IMG/VR virus record: IMGVR_UViG_2919005990_000001
Location: 1 to 64,000 of that record
DNA: 64,000 bases
Reading direction: 5' to 3' (one strand)
DNA from: a virus
Both the position numbers and the translations under genes were made by a program. The notes beneath the pieces are model-generated. The model was not told the origin of the DNA. It searched no databases and worked only from the letters and a program-made list of their open reading frames with translations. Each line of letters starts with the position of its first letter. The stretch's first letter is position 1. This document shows, in pieces, positions 3,932 through 63,494 of the stretch.

Positions 3932-4915
3932 TTAGCCATTATATTGACTTAACGGTCTGTAGCTTTCTTTGCTTGCTAAATTCCAAAGTGGCACTTCATA
4001 CTCATTAATAAGGTGATCTGGCACATAAATATACTCAGGATCTGTGCCGCCTGATGATCCGTTACCGTAGGCGTAGCCTTCTGCAGTGAACGGCGTATTT
4101 GATCTAAAAACGATAGTATGTAATTGATATAGATTCACCAGGGCCCAAGCTTTAATGAGTTTTAAATTTGCACCAAAATCTAGGACTTCTAGGGCGTTAC
4201 AATCTCCCAGGGCATTAGCTTCTAATATTTCAAGTGAATCTGGTAAATCAATGCTTTTTAGCCTTGTACAGTTTTCAAAAGAATAATAACCCAGACTTGT
4301 GACAGAATTTCCCAACTTTACACTGATTAAAGCATTCCAGAATCTAAAGGCAAAGAAACCAATTTTAGTCACGTTATCACTAACCACAAGCTCTGTTGCG
4401 GAAAGTCGATATTGCTCATTACGACTTTCTGACTGCTCAACTGTCTGACCTGTGATTTCATAGATCCATTGCCCATTTACTTTATATTTAATGTCCCACT
4501 CTGGTTCCTGTGGTATTTCTGGCCCAACACCACCACCACCATCACCGCCACCATCACCGCCACCACCATCACCGCCACCACCATTACCGCCACCACCATT
4601 ACCGCCACCACCATTACCACCGCCGCCTGGGTTCCAGTCTGGCCCACCTTCACCTAAACGCAATACCTGGACGTTGGGCACACCCGTCCCCAACACGTCC
4701 TGAACGGCGGTATAGCACGGATTTTGCGGATCATAACCAAGCATGGCCTTGATATTGTCCCGGTGAATGGTCATAGGCTTGTCCAGGCGGCCGCGCTTGA
4801 ACTGGCCCACGATCAGGCCCTGGATGGGATAGGCGCCAGTACCTCCACTGGCATCGTTTACGCCCTGGTATTGAATCCCGGCCTCGTTAAATAAAATCTC
4901 TGTTTCATGCGGCAT
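3932..4915 (-). CDS. paralog-family protein: conserved N-module, long Gly linker and a BspA-type leucine-rich-repeat domain
   Basis: 327-aa ORF. Residues 172-275 read VSDNVTKIGFFAF..LISVKLGNSVTSLGYYSFENCTRLKSIDLPDSLEILEANALGDCNALEVLDF, which is the LRR_5/BspA pattern. Confidence 0.75.
   Translation of the reverse strand: MPHETEILFNEAGIQYQGVNDASGGTGAYPIQGLIVGQFKRGRLDKPMTIHRDNIKAMLGYDPQNPCYTAVQDVLGTGVPNVQVLRLGEGGPDWNPGGGGNGGGGNGGGGNGGGGDGGGGDGGGDGGGGVGPEIPQEPEWDIKYKVNGQWIYEITGQTVEQSESRNEQYRLSATELVVSDNVTKIGFFAFRFWNALISVKLGNSVTSLGYYSFENCTRLKSIDLPDSLEILEANALGDCNALEVLDFGANLKLIKAWALVNLYQLHTIVFRSNTPFTAEGYAYGNGSSGGTDPEYIYVPDHLINEYEVPLWNLASKESYRPLSQYNG
4523..4654 (-). repeat. 15-nt tandem coding repeats (GGGGN/GGGGD linker, longer allele)
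   Basis: accgccaccaccatt-type units encoding GGGGNGGGGNGGGGNGGGGDGGGGDGGGDGGGG. Confidence 0.75.
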
Positions 4916-4941
4916 GGCGTTTCGCTCTCTATTGAATAGAT

Positions 4942-4982
4942 CTAGTTTACGGATCTAAACGGCGCCACCTGGGTCAGATTCC
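4942..4982 (-). promoter_or_regulatory. 41-bp upstream element (family variant)
   Basis: GGAATCTG-N26-AAACTAG, 26 nt upstream of ATG 4915. Confidence 0.6.
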
Positions 4983-4988
4983 AGGCAT

Positions 4989-5016
4989 AAAAAAGCCCGC
5001 GTACTGCGGGCCCTTT
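4989..5016 (-). terminator. intrinsic terminator after the endolysin gene
   Basis: aaaaaagcccgcgtactgcgggcccttt. Confidence 0.7.
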
Positions 5017-6150: not shown

Positions 6151-6681
6151 TTATTTCTCCTGACCTCGACCAAAGCTTTTAATAATTCGCTTTAAATCTT
6201 TGTCGGTGATCATTAACTTCAGGCCCGTAGCTTTGATAGCAGCGGCATGAATCAAGTGAATAATTGCGGGGAATACAAAGGAAACACCGGCCACCCACCA
6301 AATGACGGCGGGCGTGATTGTGTTTTTAACTTCCAGGTAGTAGACAAAGGCCAATAGGCCACCACCTACTGAGATTAAGACTTTCACCCACTTGGGGTAG
6401 GGTTTAAGTCCGTATTGCGGCGTTGGGTAAAAATAGCCGACCGTGGAACCAATGATTAAAAAAATCAGGCTGCCAAGAATCACTACTGAATAGCTGTAAG
6501 TGGTCGCAAAATTACTTAAAGACTCGTTGCTTAATACGCTTGGGCCGATAGGTAACGCTTTGACTTTTATTGCAGCCTTTGCATATTCTGTGACAAAGGG
6601 GAACATGCACCACAAACATCGCCAAAACAGACTAAATATAAAACCGATTTTTTCATTCATTGCTTCGCACTCTGTTGGCAT
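6151..6681 (-). CDS. membrane protein (about 4 TM), holin candidate
   Basis: 176 aa with four hydrophobic segments. Its start overlaps the upstream stop as TGATG. The ORF-track start at 6684 is TTG. Confidence 0.55.
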   Translation of the reverse strand: MPTECEAMNEKIGFIFSLFWRCLWCMFPFVTEYAKAAIKVKALPIGPSVLSNESLSNFATTYSYSVVILGSLIFLIIGSTVGYFYPTPQYGLKPYPKWVKVLISVGGGLLAFVYYLEVKNTITPAVIWWVAGVSFVFPAIIHLIHAAAIKATGLKLMITDKDLKRIIKSFGRGQEK

Positions 6682-8428: not shown

Positions 8429-8715
8429 TATTCTGGTTCGGGCGCCTGTTCAATGGGGATCAGTTCCGGCTTGAATCCCAGGTTACGATAAAAATCGACC
8501 ATGCGGTCCAGACTGTAATGATGGCTGTTACTCCATGTATTTAATCGCTGATCCATGAACACCATATACAACCAACAATTGCGAACTGACATATCCCCCT
8601 TTTTATAGAACTGGCGAAATTCATCATTCAGGAAAAAAGCCAATTCGGCATCAACGGATCTGCCCTGGGCTTGAATCCGTGCCATCTGGCCCTTGTGATT
8701 CTTGAACTTTGCCAT
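8428..8715 (-). CDS. hypothetical protein (95 aa), moron-like unit
   Basis: ATG start. A terminator (8770-8791) and a palindrome array (8736-8762) precede it. Confidence 0.6.
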   Translation of the reverse strand: MAKFKNHKGQMARIQAQGRSVDAELAFFLNDEFRQFYKKGDMSVRNCWLYMVFMDQRLNTWSNSHHYSLDRMVDFYRNLGFKPELIPIEQAPEPE

Positions 8716-8791: not shown

Positions 8792-8815
8792 ATTCCTGGC
8801 TTTACGTCCAGGCCC

Positions 8816-9366: not shown

Positions 9367-9409
9367 TGTTCATTTGAACATTATGTTCAAATGAACATCA
9401 TGTTCAAAT
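9367..9409. promoter_or_regulatory. palindrome array (2.5 units)
   Basis: Units start at 9367, 9384 and 9401. On the minus strand TTGAAC-N16-CATAAT gives a sigma70-like arrangement upstream of ORF 9166-9339. Confidence 0.6.
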
Positions 9410-9946: not shown

Positions 9947-12900
9947 TTATTCCTCGTAAAATTCAGTTTCAGACATATTAAACCAGTCTTGTTTCAGCAT
10001 CCATAGCATCACTTCCGGTTCCACGATCCAACGGGTTCCGCGTGAATCCCAGGCGCATTTCTTGCCGATACTTTCCGCGTACTTTTTCATGTCATCTTTG
10101 TAAGTGTCCTTAAACTCACGGCCAAATGACCCCAAGCCCAGGAATGCCACGCCGGTGACTTTGATGTTTTTGAATCGGCCCATGCCACCATGCACTTTAG
10201 TATATTTTTTCACTAAAGCTTCAGGACTATCGGCATCCAGGGCAAAGTTTTTCATAATGCTGACAAAGTTACCCAGGCCGCGGGTTTTGGCCTTGAATGG
10301 TTCCACACTTGTGACCTGGTGCCCAATAGCAGACGTCAAAATAAATTCCAGGACTTGTTCGCGTAGGTCATCACTCAAAATGGTGTCATAGCTAAATGGC
10401 AGTACCAGGGAACCGCCGATCACTTTGCCAAACTCCCCATTGATCCGGTTTCTAAATTCATCTTCAAAGGCTTCGACATAACGCACGTCTACCCCATCAA
10501 AGTTGATCTTCAGCTTTTCGGTTTGAGCAAAGTAAAATACGTCATCGAGCACGTCCATCATGGTTGTTCTGGCGTACTGCATCTTGTCCATATTGCGGTT
10601 ATCGATCTCGGCCACCGTGTTTAAGATGCTTTCTTTCTCAACACTCAGCACGATTCCATCAAATACGGCGTTATAGGCTTTGACTAGATCCGGGTTATTG
10701 GCTGCCAGGCTTTCAAAGAAATTCGGCGCCCAGTAAAAGCGTTTTGTGTCTTTGTGGCGGATCTCAGTAATACGCACCCGGGTTTTACCACTCAGCCAGT
10801 TTTCCTGTACCCCTTTTAACTTGGATTCTACCGCCTCGCGTACTTCAGGGAATACCGAACTAAAGCGGGCAATATCACGGTAATCAGACGTTGATAACAA
10901 GCCATAATCAAAGACTTTCGCGCTTTCCATGCGTTCCAGTTCAAAGTCTGCAAAAGCTTGAATAGCAGCTGCTCGTTCATTCGGTTGAATGAACTCAAGA
11001 TTGCCGACTGACGAATTAAAGGAATTGGCGTATTGATAGAAAATACTGCCATTATTCACAGACACAATGCCGTAAAACATGGCGCCTTTTTCTGGATTGC
11101 TTGTCTTGACAATATCGCCATTACGCGCCAATTTCTGATTTTTAATGACGGCGGTGCCATCAAATAACATGGCCCGATCATTGGCTGAATATGGACTGTC
11201 TTCATATTTAAGCAGCTGCTCTTTGGTGCTGACTGCCATGCGCTGAATAGACTTGTACTGTTCTTTGGCACGGCCATGAATTACGCCCTTATTTTCAGCC
11301 AGAACATTTTCTACCAGGTCACTTGATTTAAAGCCTTCGCCAAATGCATAAGATGAAAAAGAGCCGACATAACTGATTTCACCGCCACGGGGTTCGGCAA
11401 AGCGGCTTAGTGCACGGTCCCAGTTTTCAGCCGTGTTATTTGGAATATAGCCATCATACTGCTGCACAATTGCGGCCTTACGCTGCTGTAGATCTTCCAG
11501 GGTTTCGGCTTTTTTGGTTTTGCCTTCAGTCTTCAACAAAGCAACATACTTGGTGAAATCACTCACAATAATTTCTTCAGTGATCGCCGTTTCAGATTTC
11601 GCGGCCTTCTCTGCTGATCGTTGTGCAATGGTCAAAAGCATGTCTGTTTGCTTGGTTGCACGGTCTAAACGGGCCTGGTTCTCGCGCTCGGTACGTTGCT
11701 GTAACAGCTGCTCAATGGCTTCTTGACTGTCCGCCTGGATCAATGAATCTAAATCATCATCTGACAGTTCACCTGTCACCGTCAAAGTACCGCCGGCACT
11801 GCTGTCCTTGTTCATCAGCTTGGTAATCCAGTCTGACTTGCCGTTAATGATGCTTAGCTTGTATTCATCAAATGAACCGTTGGCGTTGTACATGTACACA
11901 CGCACTTTGGCCTGTTGGTTGCCCTGACGTACACCACGGCCATTACGCTGCTGCAAGCTGTCTGGCGTCCATCCTGTCGTTAAATGGTGAATGGCCTGGG
12001 TGCCACGTTGCAAGTCGATCCCGGTGTCTGCCTTTTTGTTGGCAATGACTACGGTGTACTTGTCCGATGCAAAGCCGTCCTGGATATCCTGGACGTCATC
12101 TGTCCCGACCTTGCCTGAAGAGCCATCTGGCTTGATTGCTGCGTTTAAGATCGCAATTTTTGAGGCATCAATGCCGCAATACTGGATCAAAGCCTGTTTA
12201 ATCGTATGGTGCATCGCCAGGGTGTCACAGAAAATGATTTGCTTGGCATGGCCGTTATGCATTGGATTGGTTTGTTCAATCTTAAAGTTTTCAATCATCG
12301 CCTGAAGTTTGGCAGATAATTTAGGCTTTAGATCCAGGCCGAACTTGGCCGCAATTTCAAATAAAATAGCAATGGCTTTGGTATCGTTCGCCGTCAAAAA
12401 TAAACGGTTCTGATCTTCATCCACATAGGCCCGTACAGTGATTTCATATTCATCCGCATCACCAAAGCTTTTCCCGCGGTTTTTGATTTTGATATCCGCC
12501 TCTTCGACCAACGGATAAGTACGCTTGGTTGTAAATTTAGGCGGCTTTTTGTTGAAGGCTTCAACGACCTGTTGGGTCAAAGTATCGTCTTTAGGTGAAA
12601 TATAATCGATGTAGTAACCACGCTCCATAACGGCGCTTTCACCCATCAAAATCAAGTCCTGCATCTTCATGATCAAGTTGAATGGATGGGCAATCAGTTC
12701 AACCGGTTCCCCTAGTTTTTCGCACATGTCCTCTAAAAACTTCACATCGTCTGCATCGCCCTGGACTGAACCTCTACTGGCTGCCTGACGGGCCAGGCCA
12801 TAAGCGCGTTTAAGATCGGTCAAAGTGGCACGGTCTGCCGGTGATAAATCAATATTGGTTTTGACTGGCACCGCTTCAGGGATTTTTAAATCATTTTCCG

Positions 12901-18089: not shown

Positions 18090-21000
18090 TTATGCGATGG
18101 TTTGTGCATTTTTCAATGCAGCTTGTGAATAGGCTTCAATGGCTTGTTCAAACAGGGCCTCATGCGCCGGTTCCAGATTCTCGCCAATCTGTTCAATTCG
18201 GTTTGCCGTGTCTTCAGACAGTAGATCCACATTGCCGGCAATCACATCATTTAAGAATTGCTGATCCTGGTTCGCCTCTGTCGGCTGCTCTGCTGCATTC
18301 ACCTGGTTCCATCGATCAATCGTTTCGTTTGCACGTTTAATTGAATCTTCAATTTCAGCACGATACTTTTCATCACGGAATTTACGCTGTAGTACTGCTT
18401 CAGCCTTTTCAATCCAGGGCTTGAACTTGCCTGGTACATCGGCATTCTTAAATTCAGACGGCGTATGGCCCTGCAAATCTAAAATGATGTGGTCAAGCAT
18501 GCGGTAGGCGTCTTCGGCTTCTTTCTTCAGCACAATACCGGCCGGGGCTTCATTGTTCATTTGAACATTCTGTTCATTCTCGACCTGGGCCGGAACTGCG
18601 TTATTAATTAAACCTGCCAAGTCCTGTGCGACCAGGCTTAAATCATCGCGTAGATTGAACGCGGTGCCAGGGATGCTATAGGTCACGCCGACCAGATTGG
18701 CCCCACCGCCGACCTGTTTAAGATCCATCTTCAGCGTATAACCATTCTTGCTTAGATCCTTAAAGCGTTCACCAGTCCATCCCAGGTCACGCAAAGCATT
18801 GCGGGTATCGATTAAACGGCTTTGGAAAAATGAATCAAGCGGATCTTGCCATTCCTTCAGCTGCTCTTCATCGTTCATAATTTTTGCATAGTCACCGGCC
18901 TGGGTCGCGTCCGTGATTTCATCCACTGGCGCCGCCGTTGCATAGCCCTGGACAAACAACATGATCTCTTTGGCTTTGGTTTTAATGCCTTGCTCTGAGG
19001 CTTCAGGCAGGGTGAAGGTCTGAATGTCTTCATCCGCGGTATTGTTTAACGCAATTTCGCCACTCTTACGGAATGGATCAAATTGCAGTTTTAAACGGTC
19101 TGATTGGCCTTTTACTTGCACTTCAATAACCGCGGTACTGCCCGCTTTCTCCCATCCATTTGCATGTAACTCAGCAATCAATGCTTTCACTAAATCAATT
19201 GCGCCGGCGTTCTCATACGGATTGTCTGAAGCCACGATCCCCAGGACGTCTGCACCGATCACCAGGCTTAATTTAACGGCCATATCAGCAAAGGTATAGG
19301 ACTTATCCCCCATTGCTTCACCCATGCCCATCATGCGATGTGTTAGCCAGGCTTTCGTTCCTTCTAAGTCCCCTGCATATTGACCGCCTACGCCGTCCAG
19401 ATTAATCAGTACTTCATAGAGTCCGCCCTCTACTGGCTGAATTGTTACGGTTCCGGCTGCCTTACGTGCACGTGGATTCGCGGATTTAATTGCATAGACT
19501 GATTTCTTTAATTCAGCTTGATCATTGTTCATTTGAACATTCTGTTCATTTTGTTCATTTTCCAGAACTTTAATAAACATATTCAACACTTCGCCATCAG
19601 CACCAACACTATCCAACATGGCATTGACATTGTTTTGTTCAGTTTCTATACTGTCATTAAGGCGGTAACTGCCGATGTGGGTCAGCGGATCAAGCTTGTC
19701 TTGAATGGCTCCCGCCGTTAGAAGTGTTACTGCATGAAGCCCGTCTAATAGCGGGCTTTTTGCATTTTTGAACATATTAGGACTAATCGTGTGATCATAG
19801 TGATAATGTCCTTTGTCATCCTCACGAATTACAAAACGCACTTCCACTTTTTCTTCTTTTAGAACTAAAGGCGCTGTCAAAATATGATAAGCCTTGATGT
19901 TGCTTTCACCTGCATCATACGATGGCATTGATTCAGCCAGTTCTGCATTAGCCAATAGATCTTTAAGCGCCGCAAGGGCCTGTAATTTACGCGCATCGCT
20001 ACTGAGGCTCAGGATCTTTTTCACGCCGTTTTTACGAATTTCAACATCGGCATTAAGGGCCGGGCATGGGTAGGCATTACCAATCATTTCAGACAAAGCG
20101 GTTTTTACTACTGCACGTAGTTCCTTCTTGTCTTCAGGTAAATTAAACTCCCCAAATTCATCGCCGGTCAGTTCTGGCACCTGGGCGGCTTCAGCAACTA
20201 ATTTTTGCAAAATCTCAGCAATATTCACCTGGGTCGCTTGGTCTGTCGTGAATGCTGCAATAGATTCGGAACCGCTGTTACCCTTCAATAGATCCAGATT
20301 CCCGTCAAAATCGACTGAAGCGCGGGCCAATACATTGCCGTCTTTGCCAATTTGTGCGGTGATGCCATAAATTAACTGGCCTTGATGATCGATAGAATCA
20401 AATAAGCCGGCTGTGGCTTCGGTCTGATTGAAATCAGCGAATACAATGTCCAGGCCACATGCTACGGCGGCCTTTTTCAGCTGCTCGACCGTGAACGCAT
20501 AATCGCCAGTTTTGCCCAAATAGGGTGATGTTTCGTCTTCAATTTCGCCTTCATTGCTAAAATCGAAATCACGTTCAAAGGCCCGCTGTGCAATGGCTTT
20601 AACAATGTAGTCCACGCTTTCAGTGGTATCGATAGTATCTACGATTAAACGCATTGAACTAAGTTCAATCTCTGGATTCTCTTCATCTTCATCTGTGGCG
20701 ATTTCCAGGTCATAGCCATTGTCAGACTCAAGTTCGACATGCCATTCGGCTTGTGTTGATCCTTCAGGCTTGCTAAAGCCATGCTCATTGATCAGGCGCA
20801 TGACGATTTCATTCAGCTTGGCAATAACGGCCGTTTTTGCCTCCTGGTTTTGATCTAAATCGGCTTTTAGTCCTTCGTGGAACTTGTCTGCACCTGCTTT
20901 GGCTTCATCCTCAAGTGATACCGGATCTACGGCGTCCTTTTGCTGCATTGCCAGGGCTTCGGTTTCTTGCTGCTTGCGGATCATTGCGCCGTCAATCTGC

Positions 21001-32707: not shown

Positions 32708-33228
32708 GCGGCCATCCCTTCGATCTTGGTCAATTCTGCTGCTTTCTGCGCCGTATGGGCCCGGTGCTGTGCAATCTGATCGTCTAGCTCTTTTAGGACT
32801 TCACGGGCCTGTTGAATGCGTTTTTTCACCGTTAATGACGGCGCTTTCGTTTTCGGGATCATGACCCGGGCAGATTGACGTTTAATATTGAATTTTTCCT
32901 GATTGGCTTTAAGTTTTAAGCCCAAATCTTCCAGGGCCGCATTAAAGTCACTCATTTTGTCGTAATCCATCACTTTTGATAGCGGGATATTCTTGCCATT
33001 TAAAGCATGCTGAATTACATCGCCATCGGTACGAAATACCAGGGCAAGTGTCTGGCCCTCTTCAAAGGTGAATGTGACCTTTTTCGTGGCTACATCAGCC
33101 TTTTTAATCAGCTTGTCCACGGCAATATAAGCCACGGTCTGCTTGGTGGCTTTTTGCAAGGTTTCCTTAATTTCTAAAACAAAGGCATGTTGTTCACTTA
33201 ATTCGCCCAGTACAAACTTTTTCGCCAT
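32704..33228 (-). CDS. hypothetical Lys-rich protein (174 aa)
   Basis: ATG start. The 41-bp element lies 29 nt upstream. Confidence 0.6.
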   Translation of the reverse strand: MAKKFVLGELSEQHAFVLEIKETLQKATKQTVAYIAVDKLIKKADVATKKVTFTFEEGQTLALVFRTDGDVIQHALNGKNIPLSKVMDYDKMSDFNAALEDLGLKLKANQEKFNIKRQSARVMIPKTKAPSLTVKKRIQQAREVLKELDDQIAQHRAHTAQKAAELTKIEGMAA

Positions 33229-33257: not shown

Positions 33258-33298
33258 TCATTTTGACGGATTCATAAACGGCACTTTTTCGATATTCC
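33258..33298 (-). promoter_or_regulatory. 41-bp upstream element
   Basis: GGAATATC-GAAAAAGTGCCGTTTATGAATCCGTC-AAAATGA, 29 nt upstream of ATG 33228. Confidence 0.6.
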
Positions 33299-33345: not shown

Positions 33346-33376
33346 TGTTCATTTGAACATAATGTTCAATTGAACA
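33346..33376. promoter_or_regulatory. palindrome array (2 units)
   Basis: Units at 33346-33359 and 33363-33376. It starts 3 nt after the stop of ORF 33380-34123 and is followed by a terminator and then a 41-bp element. Confidence 0.55.
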
Positions 33377-41889: not shown

Positions 41890-43875
41890 TTATGCGAATA
41901 GGTCTGCTACCTGGTCTGCCTCTTCCATTGGACTTGACGGAATAACTTGCATTGCATTGATTTCGTCATTCATAGCTTCATGGTTCGCGCTTTCGCCGTC
42001 CTGGGCCGGGGTATAGTTGGTGCCTTCCAGGAAAATGAAGGCAAAGGTATCTGCAATATCGGGTGATGTAATGCCCTTGCGCTTCATGTCTTCTTTAGAC
42101 AGGATCTTAAAGCGGGCCTGATCATCAAACGTATAAGGGATACGGGTCAGCTGCTCTTTTACTTTACCTTGCAGATAGTAGGTCTTGATCTTGAAGCGGC
42201 CCTGCTGAATGGCACGTGACATGCAGACATAGGCTTGGGCACGTTTATTCACGTACTCTTTTTTGTTCTTATTACTAAAGCATGCCCCGCCCCAGTGAAT
42301 CGGCTTAAAGTAGACGCCAATTGACTTCAAATGCTGTGCCAGGCCCGTACCGGCGCCGTTGGCATCTAGCAGAATTGTGGCATTAGAATATTCAGTCAAA
42401 CAGTCATTAATGACGGCGGTTAATTCATGAATATTGTCATTGTTCTTACATAGTGGAATACGGGTCAATTCAGCACGTCTGGCCGATGGCCCCCACTGGG
42501 CATTCCCCCATACCTTCGCAATGGTAATAGTCGAGTCATCACGGCCCACACCGCCGCCCACGTCCACCAGGATAAAGTAGCCATAGTTAGCATGCTTAAC
42601 CTTGTGCAAAGCTGCGCCCTGGTAAACCTTATCCGCCATTTTCTGCGTAACCAGAAATTCACCGGCCAGGTCTGGGAACTCACCCCGGATACGCACCATA
42701 TATTGCGGATCATCACGGGAACCATACTGCAGTAATGATTCTCGAATCTTGGACTCGGATACCAACGGCGAATCTTCAGAATTGAAAATGAGCGCGTTCC
42801 AGACGCCCCCGGCTTTCATCGATAGCTTGTGATGGGTGTCAAAAAAGAATCCCGCGGGCCGGGCCGGCTGTGAAGTCAGACACATGCGGTTATCTGGATG
42901 CGTCAAAGCACCTGTTAGAACGTCAAACACCCCGTCATCTACGGCGGCGGCCTCGTCCACCCAAATCATTAAATAATCACCGTGGTTCCCTGCTAGGGCC
43001 TGGGGATTACCTTTTGGTGCTGTTTTGGCATAAACATGCCAGGTCTTTTGATGGCCCTTGATATAAACGCTTTCTGCCAGAACGGTAATGTAATCTGCAA
43101 GCCAGGCCAGGCGCCCATTGCGCATCAGGCTTAAACAGATTTCGATTTCCTTCCACACCAGTTTCCGCAATTGCTGAATCTGCGGGGCGGAAAACATCAT
43201 CACGGAATGCGGGAAAAAACAAAGGTGCCAAAGGGCCACAACACCGGCCGAACGGGTTTTACCGGTATTGTGAAAAACCGTGCCATCTGCGGCTAGAAAT
43301 TTATGATCGCCCGATACTAAAAAGCCGTAATACTTGCCTTCCCCCAGGTTTTCCGTCTGGGTGATTCTAAAGACGTGATAGGCCCCCATAATCAGCTTGT
43401 AAACGCCGTAGCGGGACTTTTCAAAGGCAGTGAGCCTGTTCCACTGTCTAACCGTTAATTCCCGTGTAATGCGCGTTTCTACGTGCATTAAGCATAGGAT
43501 ATGGGATTCATTGAATGTATGGCCTGTCCCGTCTTCATAGGTGAAGCGGTGCATGGTTTCCTTACCACGTTCCAGGTACAGTACTTCGCGGCTCGATTTA
43601 CCATCAGCACCCATAAGGTGATGATTAATCGTGACCTCTTCCACGTTAATGCTTTGCCCATTGGCAAGCATAATTTGCGTACCCTTCGCAAAGCATCCAT
43701 GTCCTGACGATACGCTTGTACGCGAACCGTCCATTGCAATACTGTTAAATAGCTCGTCCTGTTGCCAGGTATAGTCCATTCCTAACGCTTCAACGGAAAA
43801 GCGGCCAATGTCATAGCGGTATCTTTGACAGGCGGTTTTCCATTCTGGCAACTGTTCTAAGCTTTTTAACGCCAT
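41890..43875 (-). CDS. terL: terminase large subunit interrupted by a mini-intein
   Basis: The exteins join as SSGHG/TGKTRSAG, restoring a Walker A motif. AAGGAG SD. The C-terminal half fits a nuclease-type terminase pattern. Confidence 0.75.
   Translation of the reverse strand: MALKSLEQLPEWKTACQRYRYDIGRFSVEALGMDYTWQQDELFNSIAMDGSRTSVSSGHGCFAKGTQIMLANGQSINVEEVTINHHLMGADGKSSREVLYLERGKETMHRFTYEDGTGHTFNESHILCLMHVETRITRELTVRQWNRLTAFEKSRYGVYKLIMGAYHVFRITQTENLGEGKYYGFLVSGDHKFLAADGTVFHNTGKTRSAGVVALWHLCFFPHSVMMFSAPQIQQLRKLVWKEIEICLSLMRNGRLAWLADYITVLAESVYIKGHQKTWHVYAKTAPKGNPQALAGNHGDYLMIWVDEAAAVDDGVFDVLTGALTHPDNRMCLTSQPARPAGFFFDTHHKLSMKAGGVWNALIFNSEDSPLVSESKIRESLLQYGSRDDPQYMVRIRGEFPDLAGEFLVTQKMADKVYQGAALHKVKHANYGYFILVDVGGGVGRDDSTITIAKVWGNAQWGPSARRAELTRIPLCKNNDNIHELTAVINDCLTEYSNATILLDANGAGTGLAQHLKSIGVYFKPIHWGGACFSNKNKKEYVNKRAQAYVCMSRAIQQGRFKIKTYYLQGKVKEQLTRIPYTFDDQARFKILSKEDMKRKGITSPDIADTFAFIFLEGTNYTPAQDGESANHEAMNDEINAMQVIPSSPMEEADQVADLFA
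43267..43695 (-). mobile_element. 143-aa mini-intein (HINT domain, no homing endonuclease) inserted in the terminase P-loop
   Basis: It starts CFAKGTQIMLANGQSINVEEV (block A) and ends DGTVFHN, followed by Thr (block G). Codons were checked on the sequence: Cys at 43693-43695 and Asn at 43267-43269. Confidence 0.75.
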
Positions 43876-46742: not shown

Positions 46743-46783
46743 TCATGCTAAACGGCGCTCCAAAGCGGATTTTTCAGTATTCC
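46743..46783 (-). promoter_or_regulatory. 41-bp upstream element (weak heptamer)
   Basis: GGAATACT-N26-AGCATGA, 25 nt upstream of ATG 46717. Confidence 0.4.
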
Positions 46784-47334
46784 TAGAAATCTGGAATAGG
46801 ATTTATATTTTCAGGATCGGGCCAGTTCATTAAGGCCCGGGCTTTTTTGGTGATATAGAAATAGCCACCGCGATTCATGGAATCTCTGAAGCAATCCAAA
46901 TAGCCGTTTTGTACCAGGCTATCTGTGTGCCGCTGCACGGATCGAATACTTAGATCCGGCATCACTGCATTTTTAAGCCTGGCATTGTCTACCTGCACAT
47001 AAGTATTCACAAAGCGTAAAATAGCCACCATACGCTCAAAGCCGGCTACCATGCCTTGATCCTTCTCGACCAATACCCGCTCGACTTTCAGCTTGGGTTT
47101 TTTCTTCGACTCAAGTTCTAGGCGCCGTGGTAGGTCCACTTCAAGCATGAGTAAATGAAAAGCTGCACTCTTCTGAAATAATCGGTCTGGTGTACGGCGT
47201 TCGATAAAACAGCGTTTAAGGCGATGGTCTATTTTTTTAACAGTCCAGATTTGCCCCTGCTCTGCCTTTTCACGATATACAACCTTATCCCCGGCCTTGT
47301 AAGTAATATTTTCAGTCACTCTATTTATTCTCAT
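46783..47334 (-). CDS. winged-HTH (MarR-like) DNA-binding protein candidate
   Basis: C-terminal SIRSVQRHTDSLVQNGYL...YFYITKKA. The ATG lies 5 nt below three TGTTCAATTGAACA-type palindromes, and no SD is present. Confidence 0.5.
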   Translation of the reverse strand: MRINRVTENITYKAGDKVVYREKAEQGQIWTVKKIDHRLKRCFIERRTPDRLFQKSAAFHLLMLEVDLPRRLELESKKKPKLKVERVLVEKDQGMVAGFERMVAILRFVNTYVQVDNARLKNAVMPDLSIRSVQRHTDSLVQNGYLDCFRDSMNRGGYFYITKKARALMNWPDPENINPIPDF

Positions 47335-48659: not shown

Positions 48660-49163
48660 TCACTTAATCCAGTCCGTCACTTTCAAAGTTTTAACTGGAT
48701 TAAGGGCCGCTTCACAAAAAGCAACGGCGACTGCATCAATGGGACAATCATGCTGTTTCTTCTCAGGCAACCATGTGCCGATATATGTCCGCTCAAACTC
48801 TTCTTTGCTCATTGTGATCTGGATCGGCTTGGTCATTGCTTCAAGCATTACCATTTCAAATAGAGATTTTCGTACTGGGTGGCCGTTCAAATGGTCTTGA
48901 ATACGGCGCGGTAATCGATAACCAGGTTGAGTAAATTGAGCCATGCCGACTTCCTGCAATTTGCTATTTAGGCGCTGAAAAAAATCAGCATCCAAGCGCT
49001 TTAGCCAATCTGAATAGCACTCCCCTGCCCCTTGCGGGGCGAAATCCCAGTACACCCCTGCCAGGCTTGAAACATACGCCGTTTGGGCACCTTGCGGTTC
49101 GGTTACAGCACTTTGCTGTATCTCCGGGGCAATCAATTCATGATAGGAAAACTTCTTTTTCAT
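48660..49163 (-). CDS. hypothetical protein (167 aa)
   Basis: ATG 49161-49163 with an AGGAA SD is preferred. The ORF-track start at 49184 is a TTG inside the palindrome array. Confidence 0.6.
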   Translation of the reverse strand: MKKKFSYHELIAPEIQQSAVTEPQGAQTAYVSSLAGVYWDFAPQGAGECYSDWLKRLDADFFQRLNSKLQEVGMAQFTQPGYRLPRRIQDHLNGHPVRKSLFEMVMLEAMTKPIQITMSKEEFERTYIGTWLPEKKQHDCPIDAVAVAFCEAALNPVKTLKVTDWIK

Positions 49164-49177
49164 TTTAATGTTCCTAT

Positions 49178-49225
49178 TGTTCAATTGAACATACTGTTCA
49201 TTTGAACATTCTGTTTATTTGAACA
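49178..49225. promoter_or_regulatory. palindrome array (3 units) overlapping the 3' end of CDS 49181-49666
   Basis: Units at 49178, 49195 and 49212. It lies 15 nt upstream of ATG 49163. Confidence 0.55.
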
Positions 49226-49666
49226 TTGTGCCGGGTTTTGACTCTTCCATTCTTCTTTTACCGTCTTAATCGCCTTACGATATTTGCGGTAATAATCTGG
49301 CTTGCGTTCAATGGCTTTGATGCCCGCTTCAATACGGGCCCAATCTGATTCATTCAATCCGATCCGCCCACATAAGATATTGTTCAAGTACTGTGTTTCC
49401 ATATTTGCAGCAACGGCCAATACGTTTGTCATGCCATAGCCTCGGGTGATCATCTTGGCTTCACGAATGCGCACGTCATACTGCGACATAATGGCTTGTG
49501 CGCTGACCGGCTCACTCATGACGGCGCTTTTAAGGTGATGATGTTGCCCGGTACGAAATGCGTCAATGACGGCGCGTTGCACGATTAAGCTGTAATGCGG
49601 GTAGCCGTTACGTTCTGCGATTTGAATCAATGCTTGACGGATATGCTGCGCGGTTAAAGTTCCCAT
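49181..49666 (-). CDS. hypothetical protein (161 aa)
   Basis: GAGGAA SD. The last 15 codons (..KQNVQMNSMFN) are encoded by palindrome array 49178-49225. Confidence 0.6.
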   Translation of the reverse strand: MGTLTAQHIRQALIQIAERNGYPHYSLIVQRAVIDAFRTGQHHHLKSAVMSEPVSAQAIMSQYDVRIREAKMITRGYGMTNVLAVAANMETQYLNNILCGRIGLNESDWARIEAGIKAIERKPDYYRKYRKAIKTVKEEWKSQNPAQCSNKQNVQMNSMFN

Positions 49667-51268: not shown

Positions 51269-51554
51269 TTGATATTCCCCGGCCTGTTTTGATATCCCGC
51301 ATGATGGTGCTCATGCGTTTTTTTGATGCTTTGCTCTTTGCTTTAAGCAAGTGGGCCAGAATCGCCACATTGATAAATTGCTTGTCTGGATTGCTTGAAT
51401 AAAAGCGATTTGAACGCGGGTCATAGAATGCCTGGTGAATACCGACCGGCTGCTGTGCCACGATTTGACTGATACTTTCACGCGGTCTGGATTGCCAAAA
51501 CTGCATTGTGATTTCTTCAGCATGAAAGAAATTAACCACGGCGGAATCATTCAT
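51252..51554 (-). CDS. hypothetical protein (100 aa)
   Basis: ATG start, with an 8-nt overlap on the upstream gene. Confidence 0.55.
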   Translation of the reverse strand: MNDSAVVNFFHAEEITMQFWQSRPRESISQIVAQQPVGIHQAFYDPRSNRFYSSNPDKQFINVAILAHLLKAKSKASKKRMSTIMRDIKTGRGISIERCA

Positions 51555-56072: not shown

Positions 56073-56823
56073 TTTCTTGACCGCGTATATATTGAACAAT
56101 GGCCTTGTAGCCTTCTTTGAATCGCTGTGCCGTATTGCCACCCTCAGACAAATTGAATGCATCATAAAAGGCCCGGAATATTTCCTGGGTAGGTTCCATA
56201 GGCATAAGGACTTGATCCGTCACTACGGCGCTTTTTGGGGCCTGTGCTTTGATCGTTTCCCTTAATGCAGATAAAACGCCTTCCATGATGCGCTTTACTT
56301 CCTGGTAGCGTGGATTTGGCTTACTCAAGTTCAACTCAAAATACCAATCATCGCCGTATATGTTGCTGACAGTAGTAAATAGATCTGTTTCCAGGCATTC
56401 AACCAAGTGCCGGGCACTATCGAAGTCACGGCCATTTAAAAACTCATGGAGTTTGCGCAATTCTCTTTTGCTGACTACGCCACTATGACGGGCCTCCTTC
56501 AGCTGCTCCATGCCTTGTTCGCGCACCCATTCAAATACATCATTTGAATCCTCAAGCGGTATTGAAGATTCAATCTTAAATAACTTATCCATTAAATACG
56601 GCGCATCACAACCGGCAATAAATTCGATCAGGGTGTCTGGCCCAACGTGGGAAAAAAAGTGTGTGCCGATCACATCATGCTCAGGAATAGCGATATTGAT
56701 ACGGCCGCCACCTTCGCTATAGCGGTTATTCGGTTCTAAATACACGTGCGCTGTACAGTTATGTCTACCCAGGTTAGGTATGGAAAAAGATTCGACCTGT
56801 TTTGTGCTGATCTGGTTTTGCAT
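56053..56823 (-). CDS. hypothetical protein (256 aa)
   Basis: ATG 56821-56823 follows ACACAATAGGGAAACTACA. The ORF-track extension to 56898 runs into the palindrome array. Confidence 0.6.
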   Translation of the reverse strand: MQNQISTKQVESFSIPNLGRHNCTAHVYLEPNNRYSEGGGRINIAIPEHDVIGTHFFSHVGPDTLIEFIAGCDAPYLMDKLFKIESSIPLEDSNDVFEWVREQGMEQLKEARHSGVVSKRELRKLHEFLNGRDFDSARHLVECLETDLFTTVSNIYGDDWYFELNLSKPNPRYQEVKRIMEGVLSALRETIKAQAPKSAVVTDQVLMPMEPTQEIFRAFYDAFNLSEGGNTAQRFKEGYKAIVQYIRGQENEKSAP

Positions 56824-56864
56824 TGTAGTTTCCCTATTGTGTAAAAAAGCGACTGCCCGCTTTT

Positions 56865-56926
56865 GACTTATTTGAACATAATGTTCATTTGAACACAATG
56901 TTCATTTGAACATTATGTTCAATTTA
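56865..56926. promoter_or_regulatory. palindrome array (4 units)
   Basis: Units at 56865, 56882, 56899 and 56916. It lies between terminator 56932-56957 and the leader of gene 56053-56823. Confidence 0.6.
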
Positions 56927-56931
56927 GGCAT

Positions 56932-62831: not shown

Positions 62832-63494
62832 TTAAACTTTTTCAGGCTTTCTAAATTCAATGTTATGTGTCAGTTTTAAACTCGACATTTCATCACCGCT
62901 GTTTTCACTTTCGAGCAAGCTCATCATGGATAATTCCATTTGACGCATCTGCTTAGCAAAAAACATTTCAAACATAGCAACATTTTTTTCGAGTTCTTTG
63001 GCCGCTTCCAACACATCGGCATATTCAGCTTTAAAAACCAGGTCATGCGAATGCTTTTTAATAACCTCTGTAAGCTGCTTAGAACTGTTTTTTAATAACT
63101 CTCCCTGGAACGGCGGCAAATGACTAATAGACTTACTGACGTTCATGCACAGCTGCTCTGTTGCTTCCAGTACCGAACCGCGGATCGATTGAAATACCAT
63201 GCCTGAATATTTTGCAGCCAGGTTATTACGCTCAAATTCATCACTAAAGCCCAGGATAAAGTCCGCGCTGCAGCCGTAGACTTCACACATTTTAAAAACG
63301 GTCTTTAATTCAATTTTCTTTTCACCACATTCGAGCTCACTAACTCGATTGGCGAACATTTTGTCATTTCGATACGCCCAAATGAGTTGCATCGCCTCTT
63401 TGCGATTTAATCCGGCAATCTCACGGGCCAATTTGGCATTATGCCCAACGACCTTATAAAGCTTACGATCAAACGTAATATTCTCTTCACTCAT
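62832..63494 (-). CDS. XRE/Cro-C1-type HTH regulator
   Basis: AKLAREIAGLNRKEAMQLIW...VSELECGEKKIELKTVFKMCEVYGCSADFILG. ATG 63492-63494 makes an ATGA overlap with the VRR-NUC gene. Confidence 0.6.
   Translation of the reverse strand: MSEENITFDRKLYKVVGHNAKLAREIAGLNRKEAMQLIWAYRNDKMFANRVSELECGEKKIELKTVFKMCEVYGCSADFILGFSDEFERNNLAAKYSGMVFQSIRGSVLEATEQLCMNVSKSISHLPPFQGELLKNSSKQLTEVIKKHSHDLVFKAEYADVLEAAKELEKNVAMFEMFFAKQMRQMELSMMSLLESENSGDEMSSLKLTHNIEFRKPEKV

Follow-up and report, generated by a model that had tools for sequence, protein, structure and literature searches.

Arrays of a short palindrome recur at nine sites in the stretch of DNA studied here, a segment of 64,000 nucleotides (positions 1 to 64,000 of the IMG/VR virus record IMGVR_UViG_2919005990_000001) that is called the window throughout and that, judged by its gene content and homologies, is most of an approximately 82-kb, distantly P1-like myoviral phage-plasmid of Acinetobacter (lwoffii-type). 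The picture that we consider probable is that these arrays are the cognate centromere/operator sites of a type Ib partition adaptor that the phage-plasmid itself encodes, a small protein that is predicted to adopt the ribbon-helix-helix (RHH) fold and that is referred to as the partner of ParA in the following. The proposal is built on the position of the largest array of the element, directly upstream of parA, and on the concerted change of array motif and partner from one lineage of related elements to the next.

The arrays and their distribution

A scan of the window with TGTTCAWWTGAACA, in which at most two mismatches were allowed, returned 21 matches, whereas dinucleotide-preserving shuffles averaged 1.41 and never exceeded 5, and all matches save four isolated ones with two mismatches lie inside the nine arrays. 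The scan bore out each of the nine sites listed in a preliminary description of this DNA, as well as the strict period of 17 bp claimed there, which is exact from start to start in every multi-unit array. When read on the coding strand, the half-sites alternate in the order TGTTCA, 2 nt, TGAACA, 3 nt, with centers 8 and 9 bp apart; the two nucleotides in the center of the palindrome are always A or T, and the 3-nt spacer varies. On this 8/9-bp lattice, the nine window arrays comprise three to six half-sites each. Extension of the motif scan to the whole element, as the preliminary description had recommended, added two further arrays beyond the window and brought the number to 11.

The placement described for the arrays, between genes, close to start codons and often directly after terminators, was likewise recovered. 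Seven of the nine window arrays are intergenic and two lie within an open reading frame (ORF) for a 1332-aa protein; the distance from array end to start codon is approximately 12–50 nt at the genes starting at 8715, 9339, 47334, 49163, and 56823, and a terminator-like hairpin precedes four arrays. With a deliberately generous set of ORFs, intergenic arrays account for 7 of the 11 in the whole element, where intergenic DNA makes up 7% (binomial P = 2e-6). The arrangement is consistent with the cooperative operators at the heads of transcription units that had been suggested on the basis of the sequence. The arrays mark parA, the first unit past the early operon, several accessory cassettes and two late units.

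A host-wide repeat unrelated to the phage is ruled out: among 185,579 species-representative genomes a two-unit array is present in a single contig, and this contig is an 83-kb Acinetobacter relative of the element. Four viral contigs contain a two-unit array, and three of them belong to the family of the window. Neither the motif nor the arrays were found mentioned in the literature searched, and a comparison of the arrays with mosaic breakpoints between near-identical relatives gave no clear association.

Affiliation of the element

The assignment to the myoviral phage-plasmids draws on PHROG matches in the window to portal, terminase, tail sheath, and baseplate proteins and to Hdf-, DarB-, and DdrA-like antirestriction proteins. 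The portal protein is 25% identical to that of P1 and 72%, 62%, 62%, and 50% identical to those encoded on the plasmids of WCHA55, A. defluvii, A. soli, and A. oleivorans, respectively, all four of which are complete Acinetobacter plasmids of 71–83 kb. These relatives surfaced through protein search only; megablast of 12 kb of the window against 50,697 phage records yielded zero matches. A nearly exact counterpart of the window is the 81.8-kb JGI contig Ga0672995_0000330 (L004), and a near-identical relative of 78.8 kb is present at NCBI. The window differs from L004 by few substitutions across the first ~6.4 kb of overlap, after which an indel follows; by sequence, the window is thus a very close variant of L004 and not identical to it. 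In one source, the repressor of the window lineage is labeled Acinetobacter lwoffii. All genes in the window are on the minus strand. The portion of the element that extends beyond the window is represented by locus L026, which was reached by a homology search with the repressor.

The array upstream of parA

Locus L026 encodes, in this order, a CI-like helix-turn-helix (HTH)/S24-type repressor that is divergent from the early operon, a membrane protein, ERF, ParA, the partner, a resolvase, and a Rep3 initiator. The largest array of the element, with seven half-sites of the motif that we term M1 (L026 12253–12309), is situated between the strong terminator that follows erf, which has a 10-bp stem, and the Shine-Dalgarno sequence of parA, and it ends 16 nt before the ATG. 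By analogy with described systems, this is the canonical slot of a type Ib centromere/operator. ParA itself has the type Ib form: it comprises 215 aa, has no N-terminal HTH, and produces only CbiA, AAA_31, and VirC1 matches. The gene for the partner (115 aa, L026 12985–13332) begins 11 nt after parA, a layout that is repeated in nine further lineages. The other array beyond the window, A0, has six half-sites and stands at the head of the first transcription unit past the early operon.

In the flanks of parAB no further repeat array was found, and the only other repeats are Rep3-type iterons (eight copies of AACTGYATAAAACTATCTTTTAA beside rep, L026 14476–15118) and palindromes of the form AAGATAGTT...AACTATCTT upstream of rep (iteron and palindrome regions at L026 14476–15118 and 16279–16400), which probably represent the origin and the auto-operator of rep. 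The arrays described here are not Rep3 iterons, the iteron sequence AACTGYATAAAACTATCTTTTAA being different. The repressor/early control region contains neither TGTTCA nor TGAACA in the window lineage, WCHA55, A. schindleri NIPH 900, and ANC 3813; it bears repeats of the TTATGC/GCATAA type.

Motif class and partner change together

In related elements, arrays occupy equivalent places, that is, lytic or accessory units, parA, and often erf, and their motif is specific for the lineage. M1, TGTTCAwwTGAACA with a period of 17 bp, is shared by WCHA55, A. schindleri NIPH 900, ANC 3813, and the P0033 lineage, and its half-site occurs in a looser arrangement in A. soli. The A. defluvii element uses M2, aTCATAwwTATGAt, with a period of 16. 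In the L015 lineage, the TATGA box forms direct TTTTATGA repeats in three to four copies as well as inverted pairs, and L032 carries eight direct repeats of TTAATGA(T/C). Finally, A. oleivorans and L031 have M3, that is, ATGAGTA/GAGTA boxes that are placed on an 8/16-bp lattice in direct and inverted orientation. Whether inverted or direct, the half-sites in all elements keep to a lattice of 8–8.5 bp. Each related element that was examined carries its own dispersed motif upstream of parA as well. The motif can differ at orthologous positions: ahead of the DarB-like gene, WCHA55 has M1 and A. defluvii has M2, and the array position upstream of the Hdf-like gene is kept as M1 in the window and in WCHA55 and as M2 in A. 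defluvii. The binder must therefore be encoded by the element and evolve rapidly in its specificity, and neither a sigma factor nor a regulator of the host fits this pattern.

The partner changes in step with the motif. Its C-terminal ~48 residues can be aligned between lineages, and the segment that precedes the first helix can be sorted, over 11 lineages, into three classes that correspond to those of the motif. Partners with R-E-N-F/W-D go with GAACA boxes (window lineage, WCHA55, A. schindleri, ANC 3813, P0033 lineage, and A. soli), those with R-E-V-F-D or G-E-V-F-N with (T/A)ATGA boxes (A. defluvii, L015, and L032), and those with R-L-N-C-D with GAGTA boxes (A. oleivorans and L031). For L031, L032, and L033, prediction of the motif class from this segment preceded inspection of the DNA, and the prediction was correct in each case. 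The match is not simply a matter of backbone phylogeny, as is evident from A. soli, the sister of A. defluvii (69–73% identity for portal, TerL, and sheath, 64% for ParA): the former combines the GAACA half-site with RENWD, whereas the latter combines TATGA with REVFD.

Predicted fold of the partner

AlphaFold models of the single-domain partner contain a short N-terminal helix with a conserved DRF..A..FA motif and an invariant arginine, followed by a disordered linker and a C-terminal part in which an extended segment over RRENFDI and two helices are predicted with a pLDDT (predicted local distance difference test score) of ~88. The family also includes natural tandem forms (P0003 and P0006), and the model of P0006 consists of the beta-alpha-alpha unit twice, with a pLDDT of ~72–88 in the folded part. 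Its top matches in the PDB are chains of F-plasmid TraY, the identity of which was confirmed by sequence (E values of 1e-4 to 1e-2, probability 1.0, target template modeling (TM) score ~0.65–0.7, root-mean-square deviation ~3 Å over ~105 columns). TraY is a tandem RHH protein. Foldseek with the model of the monomeric partner was uninformative, and hhalign of the partner against ParG placed the RHH domains in register with a probability of 1.7%, which is not significant. The models thus predict a ribbon-helix-helix protein with a flexible N-terminal tail. With 88–119 aa, or 172 aa in the tandem forms, and with neither a ParB nor a Sop domain, the partner would represent a small partition protein of a previously undescribed RHH family, which amounts to 41 clusters at 50% identity among 1.84 billion representatives.

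The lysogeny/maintenance module offers no other universal small DNA-binding candidate, which points to the partner of ParA as the binder. The CI-like S24 repressor is rejected because the motif does not occur in its own control region; the product of the small ORF located between the repressor gene and erf is a membrane protein; and a Cys-rich ORF of 56 aa ahead of parA is missing from the window lineage.

Promoter signals associated with the arrays

It had been proposed that the 17-bp period generates sigma70-like -35/-10 pairs in arrays of two or more units, and this claim stands in part. On the minus strand, TTGAAC-16-CATAAT is present at 9407–9380, and the scanner called the same combination inside the array upstream of parA, pointing at parA. 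The pair at 9407–9380 belongs, however, to the only one of the seven scanned intergenic window arrays that reaches 9 of 12 consensus positions; the remaining six fall below this value with matches of the ATGAAC/CAnnnT grade only. Outside the window, the array in front of parA attains the same value of 9 of 12. In the A0 array, the first spacer provides the -10 element and the -35 element lies upstream of the array. In five of the nine arrays, the spacer nearest to the gene was read as CAT(A/T)AT. Sigma70-like sites are depleted in the window between 46000 and 58000 (12 found compared with 23.5 ± 4.8 in shuffles). For arrays that are confined between a terminator and a Shine-Dalgarno sequence with 12–50 nt to spare, any promoter of the downstream gene must overlap the array.

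The preliminary description had set the arrays apart from a 41-bp element and had noted that two arrays lie upstream of it. Both points hold. The 41-bp element is a separate coding-strand signal before structural genes and has the form GGAATATC(G/A)AAAA, ~21 nt, (A/C)AAAT(A/G)G. It yielded 16 matches compared with 2.5 expected, 15 of the 16 being on the coding strand, and it is usually found 60–80 nt upstream of structural or lysis gene starts (portal, a 630-aa protein, tail fiber, the Hdf-like gene, and others). Probably, it constitutes a class of late promoters. The arrays at 33346 and 53019 are located just upstream of such elements (GGAATATCGAAAA at 33298 and 53000).

Proposed mechanism

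In the mechanism that we propose, one RHH dimer of the partner would occupy each 6-bp half-site (TGTTCA or TGAACA), and neighboring dimers would bind cooperatively, in the manner of ParG on its ACTC boxes and of omega on its heptads. The array in front of parA would be both centromere and auto-operator, and copies of it head roughly eight further transcription units and occupy the two positions within an ORF. The arrays probably contain or overlap weak sigma70 promoters, with TTGAAC as a -35-like and CAnnnT as a -10-like element at the right spacing, and bound partner would repress or tune the array-headed units in the plasmid (lysogenic) state. The dispersed arrays may in addition serve as extra centromeres.

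An extension of this mechanism, which we regard as speculative and on balance unlikely, would place the plasmid state under the adaptor as master regulator and turn the arrays into a switch that senses copy number. A limited amount of adaptor, distributed over ~11 arrays, would silence accessory and lytic units in lysogeny and at the same time segregate the plasmid; runaway replication after induction would multiply the arrays and titrate the adaptor, and derepression would proceed in step with copy number. If such a switch exists, a single RHH protein of ~100 aa couples partition with lytic timing.

Several points weigh against the arrays being sites of the partner that serve in partition and repression. 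We infer binding, repression, and centromere activity, as all function discussed here, from sequence. The RHH assignment is derived from AlphaFold models of moderate confidence (mean pLDDT 67–69), and significant sequence similarity of the partner to ParG, to omega, or to families in Pfam or the PDB was not found. The co-variation of motif and partner is only partly independent, as the window lineage and WCHA55 are sisters and A. defluvii and L015 are probably related; moreover, M1 and M3 partners both have R-x-N-x-D at alternate strand positions and yet go with different boxes. Most arrays are weak sigma70 matches, which renders the step of the embedded promoter uncertain, and a repressor that is bound in lysogeny needs a mechanism of relief for lytic growth. 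Finally, an exact two-unit M1 array is present in a long AT-rich intergenic region of an unrelated phage contig (L023, IMGVR_UViG_2791355504_000004, 6525–6555) that has no par genes in the locus and no homology to the window element.

Alternative explanations

According to the preliminary description, the arrays form an early/middle class of lytic promoter-operators, in which host sigma70 RNA polymerase starts within the arrays and cooperative binding is due to a window-encoded dimeric HTH regulator. The palindromic units with their fixed spacing, the location between terminators and start codons and the hexamer pair at 9407–9380 all agree with this view, and the product of 62832–63494 (220 aa) is indeed XRE-like by alignment, with RefSeq homologues that are annotated as HTH regulators. 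The recognition helix of this family, NRxSELE, stays almost unchanged, however, as the motif switches between M1, M2, and M3, and the other two ORFs that had been named as sources of the binder (46783–47334 and 49181–49666) encode products that show no HTH signal in Pfam, and full-length homologues of them are missing from WCHA55 although it shares the motif. Nor can an HTH dimer on a palindrome account for the sister lineages in which the equivalent half-site recurs as direct repeats of 8 bp. Within the lysogeny module, these arrays stand in front of parA and, in other lineages, in front of erf, no array is found in the repressor/early control region, and the consensus value of 9 of 12 is reached in one of seven intergenic window arrays. 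The arrays are not "the" lytic promoters, and we give this explanation very little chance. Even less credit, to the point of near dismissal, is due to the idea that the arrays act as nucleic-acid structures, either as cruciforms or as RNA hairpins that serve as terminators, processing sites, or replication signals. A transcript of 56860–56930 does fold into a long hairpin (-26.3 kcal/mol, z = -7.65), but such folding is an automatic result of palindromic repeats, the AT-rich stems are not followed by a T-run, no match to Rfam was obtained, and L015 (TTTTATGA in three to four copies), L032 (eight TTAATGAY), and A. oleivorans (ATGAGTA) have direct repeats that lack hairpin potential.

A rather improbable alternative keeps the partner as the binder and takes the arrays as dispersed centromeres only, which have no role in transcription and are intergenic simply because non-coding elements fit there. 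The arrays are identical to the candidate centromere next to parA, eight of them have at least four contiguous half-sites, the minimum for activation of ParA by omega (PMC9499535), and phage-plasmid N15 provides a precedent for dispersed centromeres (PMC7205306). On the other hand, the arrays are placed in a very specific manner, in most cases behind a terminator and 12–50 nt ahead of a start codon, over any possible -10 element; RHH partition proteins repress promoters that overlap their sites (PMC9499535, PMC3130281); and ten extra centromeres go far beyond the need of any described system. It is also conceivable, although we judge it distinctly unlikely, that another regulator encoded by the element, such as a lytic activator or a second repressor, controls parA and the dispersed units and that the partner binds elsewhere. 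The element has many small ORFans with no assigned function, the partner is put forward as the binder from sequence, and the M1 and M3 partners have the R-x-N-x-D pattern in common despite their different boxes. Against this stand the failure to find another universal small DNA-binding candidate in the lysogeny module and an alternative repeat near parAB that could be the centromere, together with the fact that the partner strand predicted the motif class in three new lineages. Recognition of the arrays by the partner, with functions in both partition and repression, is the explanation that we consider probable.

Relationship to known partition and operator systems

By analogy, the closest functional systems are omega/parS and ParG/parH-OF, and the closest biological precedent for dispersal is N15. 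By gene organization, array architecture, and predicted fold the module would belong to type Ib; sequence homology of the adaptor to known members is the feature that is lacking. Adaptors of the RHH type bind cooperatively with one dimer on each short box, the boxes being direct or inverted on a 7–8-bp lattice, and overlap with promoters makes a single complex serve as centromere and operator. The omega/parS system of plasmid pSM19035 (Inc18) resembles the module proposed for the phage-plasmid in that a small RHH partner of a Walker-type ParA binds with one dimer per short sub-site, sub-sites are contiguous and direct or inverted, several arrays per replicon lie over promoters, including that of parA (delta), and centromere and operator are combined in one, omega being both partition adaptor and global regulator (PMC9499535). 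Its six parS sites consist of 7–10 heptads over PcopS, Pdelta, and Pomega, and at least four contiguous repeats activate ParA (PMC9499535). The systems differ in that omega reads 7-bp heptads, as opposed to 6-bp half-sites on an 8/9-bp lattice with a period of 17 bp here, in that omega sites cover three promoter regions of maintenance genes, compared with at least 11 arrays over an ~82-kb phage genome, mostly at accessory units, and in that omega stems from a Firmicute plasmid and not from a Gram-negative phage-plasmid. Sequence similarity between omega and the partner is not detectable.

ParG of TP228 (parFGH) has in common with the models of the partner the RHH fold and a flexible N-terminal tail with an arginine, and its parH-OF region likewise consists of short boxes on an 8-bp lattice, direct or inverted, which lie directly before the ATPase gene and serve as operator and centromere (PMC3130281). 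There, 8 + 12 ACTC boxes with 4-bp AT spacers are found upstream of parF (PMC3130281). All 20 ACTC boxes are, however, in one locus and not dispersed, and the box sequence is unlike the motif in the window. Phage-plasmid N15 has a partition protein, SopB, that binds several scattered sites, IR1–4 (PMC7205306). This system is of type Ia with a large HTH ParB (SopB) and single palindromes of the 16-bp type at four sites and has no arrays, whereas the element described here would be of type Ib with an RHH adaptor of ~90–120 aa and multi-unit arrays. The Sop system of N15 reportedly affects late gene expression. In KorB with its OB sites on RK2 and in C1 of P1, one protein acts on ~12–17 scattered palindromes and represses many operons, and KorB is at the same time the ParB of RK2. 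KorB is nevertheless a large HTH ParB and C1 an immunity repressor, and both use single sites, in contrast to the lattices of short boxes in the phage-plasmid. Immunity operators of the P1 C1, lambda CI, and L5 stoperator type also differ from the arrays, for the control region of the repressor lacks the motif here. As judged from the models, what is new is an undescribed family of RHH adaptors with candidate sites at 11 or more positions of an ~82-kb phage genome.

Phage-plasmids have two lifestyles to reconcile, and crosstalk of plasmid maintenance with phage gene expression is little known outside P1 and N15. If the proposal is correct, one adaptor at the heads of about a dozen units links segregation with silencing in the plasmid state and possibly with lytic timing. 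The natural specificity series of RENFD, REVFD, and RLNCD with GAACA, TATGA, and GAGTA would lend itself to the study of how RHH proteins read DNA and to the design of orthogonal operator/repressor pairs. For annotation of Acinetobacter phage-plasmids, which matter for gene flow in the genus, a rule would follow: the motif before parA predicts the dispersed regulatory sites.

Individual arrays and neighboring features

Table 1. Half-site arrays and 41-bp elements in the window. Numbers between half-sites are spacer lengths in nt.
Feature	Position	Strand	Half-sites	Surroundings
Array	56921–56873		6 exact (TGAACA-3-TGTTCA-2-...)	terminator ~56962–56930 before, gene start 56823 after
Array	53058–53019		5, last TGAGCA	after terminator; 18 nt upstream of GGAATATCGAAAA late-type element 53000–52988; gene start 52925
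Array	49225–49178		6, one TAAACA	overlaps last ~15 codons of gene 49666..49181; end 14 nt before start codon 49163
Array	47386–47347		5 exact + degenerate sixth TTAAGCA to 47339	12 nt before start 47334
Array	33376–33346		4 exact	directly after stop codon of 247-aa gene; 3' of it a hairpin, late-type element 33298–33286, then Hdf-like gene at 33228
Array	19548–19526		3	in 1332-aa gene, encodes NVQMN
Array	18576–18554		3	second array in 1332-aa gene; conservation as for 19526–19548
Array	9406–9367		5 exact	after terminator, 27 nt before start 9339
Array	8758–8736		3 exact	after terminator 8791–8776, 20 nt before start 8715
41-bp element	53000–52988	minus		
41-bp element	46783–46771	minus		
41-bp element	46200–46188	minus		
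41-bp element	41886–41874	minus		
41-bp element	40221–40209	minus		
41-bp element	38113–38101	minus		
41-bp element	33298–33286	minus		
41-bp element	27936–27924	minus		
41-bp element	24498–24486	minus		
41-bp element	8428–8416	minus		
41-bp element	6781–6769	minus		
41-bp element	1794–1782	minus		

The genes that directly follow the arrays are mostly lineage-specific ORFans with neither a Pfam nor a PHROG function, and several have terminators on both sides. The gene at 8715–8428 (95 aa), for instance, lies between terminators 8791–8776 and 8388–8369 like a moron cassette. The two arrays inside the ORF for the 1332-aa virion-type protein encode (N/D)VQMN amid linkers that have otherwise diverged. 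Both are present at homologous linker positions in WCHA55 (NZ_CP032280.1 63205 and 62545, corresponding to L002 13205 and 12545), and the homologue of this protein in the M2 lineage (A. defluvii) lacks the motif at these positions. The pattern suggests selection at the DNA level within the coding sequence.

Some minor observations concern the surroundings of the arrays. The arrays at parA, at A0, and at the gene starting at 56823 are each followed by a CAATAGGGA(A/G) box, of which the Shine-Dalgarno sequence is part (window ~56838–56828, L004 ~8799–8808, and L026 ~12310–12319), and a shorter version, ATAGGAA, is seen at 49163; array and ribosome-binding site may travel as one cassette. A hairpin of the terminator type, with A-runs and T-runs on its flanks, occupies 56845–56864 and separates the array at 56873–56921 from the start codon at 56823. 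Given its location within the presumed 5' leader, attenuation is one possible function and bidirectional termination another.

In the lysogeny module, the small membrane protein between the repressor and erf is encoded in every lineage (L026 10970–11290, L001 39015–39356, L009 298–477, and L013 16158–16385) and consists of one hydrophobic segment followed by a D(I/A)E...Q-rich tail; it may be a superinfection-exclusion or lysogeny factor. The small and in part unannotated Cys-rich ORF between the array and parA, which encodes ~50–56 aa with a C-x-C-x2-C pattern, occurs in some lineages (L016 4203–4373; A. defluvii NZ_CP029389.2 ~51390–51525, corresponding to L009 ~1390–1525; A. soli L010 ~4860–5010). 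Among the virion genes, the large terminase (661 aa, 41890–43875, minus strand) is conspicuous in that its segments match three different PHROGs. In WCHA55 and A. soli, the annotation of the homologues reads "Hint domain-containing homing endonuclease", and the terminase may contain an intein.

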